IMG/VR virus record: IMGVR_UViG_2879770953_000001
Origin: a virus
Taxonomy: Duplodnaviria; Heunggongvirae; Uroviricota; Caudoviricetes
Length of the DNA: 15,296 nt
Strand: one strand, 5' to 3'
A program made the translations under genes and the position numbers. Positions 14,856-15,296 of the stretch are shown one piece after another; the stretch's first letter is position 1; each line of letters starts with the position of its first letter. The notes beneath the pieces were generated by a model. That model was not told the origin of the DNA and made no database searches. It saw only the letters and a list, made by a program, of their open reading frames with translations.

Positions 14856-15296
14856 ATGCTTATTGGCTATGTACGCGTATCAACAAATGACCAGAATACC
14901 GATCTACAACGTAATGCGTTGAACTGTGCAGGATGCGAGCTGATTTTTGAAGACAAGATAAGTGGTACAAAGTCCGAAAGACCGGGGCTGAAAAAACTGC
15001 TCAGGACATTATCGGCAGGCGACACACTGGTTGTCTGGAAGCTGGATCGGCTGGGGCGCAGTATGCGGCATCTTGTCGTGCTGGTGGAGGAGTTGCGCGA
15101 ACGAGGCATCAACTTTCGTAGTCTGACTGATTCAATTGATACCAGCACACCAATGGGACGCTTTTTCTTCCATGTGATGGGTGCCCTGGCTGAAATGGAA
15201 CGTGAACTGATTGTTGAACGAACAAAAGCAGGACTGGAAGCTGCTCGCGCACAGGGACGAATTGGCGGTCGCCGTCCCAAACTTTCACCAGAATAA
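14856..15296 (+). CDS. Pin/Gin/Hin-family serine DNA invertase, apparently truncated (catalytic domain only)
   Basis: MLIGYVRVSTNDQNTDLQRNAL... closely resembles Pin/Gin N-terminal and catalytic sequences (catalytic Ser in VRVSTNDQ, ...GRIGGRRPKL). The ORF stops at SPE* at the window end after about 146 aa, whereas family members are about 185-190 aa with a C-terminal HTH. The track starts the ORF at TTG 14835; the ATG at 14856 with GGGGGA upstream fits the conserved N-terminus. Confidence 0.8.
   Translation: MLIGYVRVSTNDQNTDLQRNALNCAGCELIFEDKISGTKSERPGLKKLLRTLSAGDTLVVWKLDRLGRSMRHLVVLVEELRERGINFRSLTDSIDTSTPMGRFFFHVMGALAEMERELIVERTKAGLEAARAQGRIGGRRPKLSPE

Follow-up and report, generated by a model that had tools for sequence, protein, structure and literature searches.

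A pinE-type invertase pseudogene without crossover sites beside ipaHb in a Shigella/EIEC prophage remnant

The window analyzed here, a stretch of DNA of 15,296 nt, ends in an open reading frame (ORF) for a Pin-type DNA invertase that breaks off just before the DNA-binding domain, which raises two questions: what ended the gene at this point, and is anything left for its product to invert? A sequence-only reading had described the product as lacking its C-terminal DNA-binding domain, had recognized no crossover sites, had called the gene an orphaned recombinase, and had suspected that the cause lay past the window end, in an insertion sequence (IS) terminus or a deletion. We find it very probable that the ORF represents the first four-fifths of a pinE-type invertase pseudogene and that its inversion system was disabled by two separate events. 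One event would be the loss of the targets: the invertible tail fiber segment and the pixR crossover site are absent, with an ipaH2610/ipaHb module in place from ∼22 bp upstream of the ATG outwards and with no second site in either tail fiber gene. The other would be the loss of the DNA-binding domain through a CAA-to-TAA change at codon 147, ending translation just before the helix-turn-helix (HTH). The HTH-coding DNA would have stayed in frame downstream, gathering damaging substitutions, and the protein, if made, would comprise the catalytic domain and the dimer helix, with no DNA recognition and nothing to invert. We infer that this tail fiber inversion switch lost its targets to the effector-gene module before it lost its DNA-binding domain to the nonsense mutation, and that the stub has neither expression nor activity. 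RefSeq already lists the gene among the pseudogenes, as a pinE interrupted by an internal stop; the locus is an ordinary dead gene showing the textbook decay of Shigella/EIEC prophage remnants.

The truncated ORF and its product

The ORF runs on the plus strand from an ATG at 14856 to a TAA at 15294 to 15296, the final bases of the window. At the nucleotide level it is ∼95% identical to pinE of the e14 element of E. coli K-12; the two share 144 of 146 residues and the same orientation at the end of a tail fiber region. Its 146-aa product matches Pfam Resolvase over residues 3 to 135 (E value, 7.6e-52) and has no match to HTH_7 in the Pfam search, whereas the 184-aa Pin of e14, searched for comparison, matched both. 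The encoded part comprises the serine recombinase catalytic domain and helix E, followed by the first residues of the minor-groove arm (GRRPKL), and the active-site serine and arginines expected of the Din family are present in the translation (Y5-x-R7-x-S9 and D64-R65-L-G-R68). The product ends in ...GRIGGRRPKLSPE, directly after GRIGGRRPKL as had been described, and Pin is longer by 38 residues; the absence of a DNA-binding domain from the protein is thus confirmed.

All 146 catalytic residues, Ser144 included, are identical to those of the intact Pin alleles L032, L034, and L036. A purine-rich GGGGGA precedes the intact ATG. A segment at 14874 to 14941 on the plus strand, placed by the cin enhancer annotation of phage P7 (nt 19 to 86), differs from e14 pin at 3 positions in the alignment and is a putative homolog of the recombinational (Fis) enhancer, an element situated within the 5′ coding part of Din invertase genes; it would have been retained without sites to act on. 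The gene is closest to e14 pinE and by descent belongs to the Hin/Gin/Cin/Pin lineage.

Codon 147 and the sequence beyond it

Alignment to pin shows CAA (Gln) at codon 147 in the intact alleles of e14, EC20017429, and AH19B041, where the window has TAA, and CAA is also found in L032 to L036, five metagenomic or viral contigs picked for the Shigella-type Ser144 codon. Three of these (L032, L034, and L036) encode a normal HTH after the catalytic domain (...ASGVPRQKVAIIYDVGVSTLY...). We fetched the loci of relatives in three ways, by an exact 30-mer ending in the TAA, by the exact 146-aa product, and by the exact IpaH protein. TAA stands at codon 147 in all 21 Shigella/EIEC relatives that still span the codon, including S. 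dysenteriae Sd197 (CP000034), S. sonnei 53G (HE616528), S. flexneri SFBU1023, and EIEC strains, and in these 21 it is followed in the same frame by WAQAGRLIASGVSRQKVAIIYDVGESTLYKRFPARVI and a stop, a decaying HTH remnant; the HTH of the Din family is therefore encoded only past an in-frame TAA and not in the same polypeptide. Restoring Gln at codon 147 of the Shigella sequence gave an HTH_7 score of 5.4e-13.

The 441-nt allele of the window recurs unchanged in three of the relatives (L014, L015, and L021), and two of them (L014 and L015) match positions 4805 to 15296 of the window at 99.5 to 99.95% identity and are the best proxy for the DNA past the window end. Beyond the TAA all three read TGGGCGCAGGCCGGGCGACTAATTGCATCAGGAGTTTCTCGCCAG...GGTTATATAA and then pass into the yfhH side of the junction. 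The in-frame remnant is an observation in relatives, the window itself stopping at the TAA, and the genome from which the window comes presumably continues as they do.

A truncation by the end of an IS element or by a deletion just beyond the window, the cause first suspected, would fit an island this rich in insertion sequences (IS600, IS1, an IS66-family element, and IS2 all lie in the window), and in other strains an IS1 (L024) or a deletion (L018/L025) does strike pin. Those lesions, however, are strain specific and lie elsewhere in the gene, and L014, L015, and L021, together with 18 further relatives, continue in frame after the TAA. The relatives with the identical or a near-identical allele are collinear with intact pin through the normal stop plus ∼50 nt, with the C-to-T change in codon 147 as the sole difference at the truncation point. 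We consider this explanation extremely unlikely; the alignments point to a CAA-to-TAA nonsense mutation and not to an IS terminus, a deletion, or a misread.

The probability that the stop is a sequencing or reading error in an intact gene is close to negligible. The window does end exactly at the stop, and its extreme homopolymer (described below) could hint at problems of sequence quality, but TAA was present in all independent assemblies examined that span the codon, older finished genomes and recent complete ones alike, and a public collection lists the exact 146-aa product in 756 of its blocks, so the stop is not a misread; a substitution, moreover, is not a typical homopolymer error. An HTH in frame downstream had been named as the sign of a misread stop, and such an HTH was indeed found in the relatives, but behind a TAA that recurs in every one of these assemblies. 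The stop is thus a real and fixed nonsense mutation in a pseudogene. In VL40 and O121 strain 201805972 the RefSeq/PGAP label of the gene reads [quoted passage not shown] and this 555-bp feature translates to the 146 residues of the window, a stop, and in the same frame the WAQAGRLIASGVSRQKVAIIYDVGESTLYKRFPARVI remnant with its own stop.

The sequence after the stop shows signs of relaxed constraint. Compared with EC20017429, codons 1 to 146 carry 1 nonsynonymous and 12 synonymous differences and codons 147 to 184 carry 8 and 6 (Fisher P = 0.013), an excess that involves small counts and lies partly in the C-terminal tail, which is also variable among intact alleles. Comparisons with e14 and AH19B041 gave the same trend in post-stop amino acid changes, and two of the post-stop substitutions, P160S and V172E, alter residues common to the six intact Pin alleles compared. 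Secondary lesions are found in several relatives. L027 to L030 have a second stop, Q133*; L018/L025, in which the gene is annotated as a C-terminally truncated invertase, lose the reading frame after approximately codon 22; L024 has an IS1 within codon 3; and in L002 and L023 insertion sequences have entered the spacer just upstream. This pattern indicates that the gene is probably decaying neutrally, and independent lesions across lineages argue against selection for the truncated protein. The 146-aa ORF retains its start codon and is unchanged in sequence across several Shigella lineages, which tells little either way because these lineages are so close.

These lesions bear on a further reading, in which the 146-aa protein is made and kept for a function, either as a DNA-binding-deficient subunit that poisons or modulates Din invertases or with its HTH supplied by read-through. 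The intact start codon with GGGGGA before it and the unchanged catalytic and dimerization residues would suit such a role, as would the second full-length invertase with a gix-like site that S. sonnei 53G carries 8.8 kb away. Yet several lineages have wrecked the ORF further (through the second stop, IS1, deletion, and upstream IS insertions listed above), and the post-stop HTH is substituted at positions conserved among intact alleles. The sole in-frame restart after the stop, a GTG, would yield 21 residues, and the stop lies in a TAA-T context, a strong terminator in E. coli, so that read-through or a split enzyme appears unlikely. We regard retention for function as very unlikely on this evidence and prefer to read the ORF as the remains of a dead gene. 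The 146-aa "invertase" called in many assemblies should be treated as a pseudogene fragment, and it belongs neither in a tally of active recombinases nor among the markers used to recognize invertible regions.

Crossover sites and the ipaH-pin spacer

We built a 26-nt weight matrix from the 13 Din-family crossover sites (hix, gix, cix, pix, mix, and bix) tabulated in PMC3241671 (Table 3). The pix pairs of e14, EC20017429, AH19B041, L032, and L036, used as positive controls, scored 35.4 and 32.5 bits, while the maximum in the window was 8.5 bits, below the mean of the best scores from 100 shuffles of the window (mean, 9.8; highest, 17.0 bits), and no site was found there. In relatives that reach 10 kb past the gene (13 to 20 kb of sequence) the best score was likewise ≤8.5 bits, with no site; the DNA past the 3′ end of the gene matters because in phages P1 and P7 the cixL site is located at the 3′ end of the cin gene. 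An inverted-repeat search that recovers the pix pair in e14, L016, and L017 returned only chance-level pairs and nothing pix-like between positions 9300 and 15296, and pattern searches of the window for pixR (≤3 mismatches) and for AAACCNNGGTTT (≤1 mismatch) found nothing. The window thus has no pair of inverted 26-bp sites flanking an invertible segment, and the description of the gene as an orphan, a pin gene without crossover sites, holds under profile, inverted-repeat, and pattern searches alike.

Three weaker candidates were rejected. The TTCTCCC at 14778 to 14784 equals the outer 7 nt of pix, but we dropped its reading as a pixR remnant as a chance match; a local alignment of the two upstream regions was no better than 405 of 2,000 shuffles. 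A gix-like half-site, TTACTGTAAACC, lies at 7680 to 7691 on the minus strand in the first tail fiber gene, at the DNLQ motif of that fiber; it scored 13.0, where the shuffle maximum averages 12.6, its other half and a partner site are missing, and we do not consider it a site. The DNLGL motif of the second fiber (approximately 11019 to 11033) matches pixL at 13 of 26 nt without the AAACC/GGTTT core and was also set aside. As an observation on the proteins, both tail fiber genes (7666 to 7691 and 11019 to 11033) retain a DNLQ or DNLGL motif, the motif in which Din crossover sites are embedded in invertible fiber genes; pixL of e14 encodes LENLGLGE.

In intact loci pixR lies 55 to 80 nt upstream of the ATG, and in the intact alleles with an identical 146-aa domain it lies 79 nt upstream, with a second, inverted pix site ∼1.85 kb off wherever the contig is long enough. 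Similarity of the window to intact pin loci reaches its left limit, by BLAST and alignment, within the ribosome-binding-site region at 14834 to 14855 (plus strand), beginning at 14834 against L003 and L016 and at 14842 against L017, i.e., ∼14 to 22 nt upstream of the ATG. For phage invertase loci, too, the match to the window starts only ∼18 to 50 nt upstream of the ATG, and the DNA left of 14834 bears no relation to the pixR region found in intact loci. Since similarity begins only ∼14 to 22 nt from the ATG, the pixR position at 55 to 80 nt holds unrelated DNA, and the limit at ∼22 bp means that the proximal pix site and the invertible tail fiber segment are missing.

The place of the invertible segment and pixR is occupied by the upstream regulatory region of an ipaH class 5 gene (14338 to 14781, minus strand). 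The gene itself, ipaH2610/ipaHb (12511 to 14337, minus strand; IpaHb in RefSeq), encodes a type III effector E3 ligase of 608 aa with Pfam matches to NEL (2.4e-75) and LRR_TTSS (6.5e-17), and it is cargo at the tail fiber end of the prophage, pointing towards the fiber genes. Members of ipaH class 5 have a protein of ∼609 aa and an upstream region with a modal length of 491 nt and an MxiE box (PMC9046306, Table 2); the window gene agrees in its NEL and LRR_TTSS domains, its size, and its upstream MxiE box. The box, GTACTGTTTTTTTAAAG, is on the minus strand at 14713 to 14729 and departs from the consensus at 2 positions (0.07 such matches expected by chance). It falls within a perfect 16-nt palindrome with a 4-nt loop (14697 to 14732), which on the plus strand also scores as a terminator-like hairpin facing pin.

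The AT-rich spacer between ipaH and pin was found by megablast in 6 of 5,426 complete E. coli genomes, all EIEC-type and all with ipaHb adjoining; four of the six match the whole query at 99.5%. A search of a phage collection recovered no phage with this spacer. The spacer measures 489 nt in relatives with 6 C residues and 518 nt in the window, where it is longer because a poly-C tract has expanded. This tract is a 35-C homopolymer at 14782 to 14816 on the plus strand (Tandem Repeats Finder, 35 copies, 100% match), which lies 39 nt before the pin ATG and 53 nt past the ipaH MxiE box. Elsewhere the tract has 6 or 7 C residues in most relatives (S. dysenteriae, S. sonnei, and EIEC), 17 in L004/L005, 23 in L014/L015, and 30 in L021; it has expanded and varies in length in the closest relatives of the window. 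Some of this variation could be homopolymer calling error, and the expanded tract is a likely source of disagreement among assemblies and length calls at this locus. A literature search on the tract found no paper. It is very doubtful that the stub is expressed and dampens Din invertases in trans, with the poly-C tract acting as a slipped-strand switch for the stub or for the divergent ipaH2610 promoter.

Prophage context and related loci

The window is a heavily degraded prophage, and the locus is the right end of this IS-riddled remnant, next to yfhH/purL in a Shigella/EIEC-type chromosome. A truncated integrase gene (1 to 1101) is followed by an IS600-like element (IS600; 1099 to 2363), IS1 (2515 to 3282), an IS66-family element (3564 to 6319), and IS2 (8094 to 9425); these four insertion sequences make up ∼40% of the window and interrupt the integrase, baseplate, and first tail fiber genes. 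Scanning the full window against Rfam gave no family. To the left of ipaH lie the DUF4376 gene, the side tail fiber gene, the fiber assembly gene, and the first fiber gene, the last split by IS2. The second tail fiber gene (phage_tail_N) and the DUF4376 gene, both identified by Pfam, span 10488 to 12331 on the plus strand. Within them, the lambda-type side tail fiber gene (10488 to 11756) has an in-frame stop at 11178 to 11180, where the near-identical L015 has Trp, and relative to L015 it is also longer by 13 residues, GNAQQTAQDVAAA, inserted in frame at a short GCGCAGGCGCAGCAGA repeat, which is another sign of decay.

All fiber and assembly genes (7195 to 12331) lie on the plus strand, and the only minus-strand gene before pin is ipaH. 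The window contains no inverted alternative fiber cassette, so the alternative fiber and assembly cassettes in opposite orientations that mark Din systems are missing. The window gene therefore lacks three features of a working member of the family: an HTH in the polypeptide, crossover sites, and inverted alternative cassettes. In e14, by contrast, the 184-aa Pin has its HTH_7, and two inverted 26-bp sites (pixL and pixR), 1.8 kb apart, flank alternative fiber/tfa cassettes. The intact pinE prophage of E. coli EC20017429 occupies the same chromosomal site (yfhH-yfhb-tadA-mltF) but has the complete system, with fiber, tfa, inverted tfa′, inverted fiber′, pinE, and both pix sites. Like L032, L034, and L036, which share all 146 catalytic residues with the window, it differs in that codon 147 is CAA, the HTH is normal, pix sites are present, and ipaH is absent; the inverted pix pair itself was seen in EC20017429, L032, and L036.

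The closest counterpart is the RefSeq pinE pseudogene beside ipaHb in EIEC strains VL40, VL7S7, and RMDEC465, in O121 strain 201805972, and in Shigella genomes, which is the same locus with the same nonsense codon at 99.4 to 99.6% identity and differs from the window only at strain level, in the length of the poly-C tract, in the complement of IS elements, and by a few synonymous changes. A "defective pinF," an e14-like pin gene, was reportedly described in S. flexneri by Tominaga et al. in 1991 (J Bacteriol 173:4079, a reference listed in PMC3241671); the pin pseudogene of the window fits this description and probably corresponds to it.

In other prophages the fiber-DUF4376 module precedes ipaHa or sitABCD as its closing cargo and lacks an invertase; it is a general cargo-carrying phage end. 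The Shigella/EIEC locus is thus a mosaic, in which a phage end bearing ipaH meets a pin gene deprived of its proximal site and invertible segment. In E. coli FDAARGOS_943 (L018/L025) the fiber-DUF4376-ipaHb-pin′ module adjoins pgl/ybhH and not yfhH, with pin cut after ∼96 bp; this module either was relocated by rearrangement or is a second copy.

A second Din-type invertase is present in S. sonnei 53G (L009, positions 1208 to 1871), full length at 190 aa and with both Resolvase and HTH_7. It lies 8.8 kb upstream of the dead pin, adjoins a minus-strand tail fiber assembly gene, and is immediately preceded by a gix-like site, TTCCCGTAAACCGAGGTTTTCAGGAA, that scores 29 bits, so that some relatives keep a nearby paralog that is potentially active.
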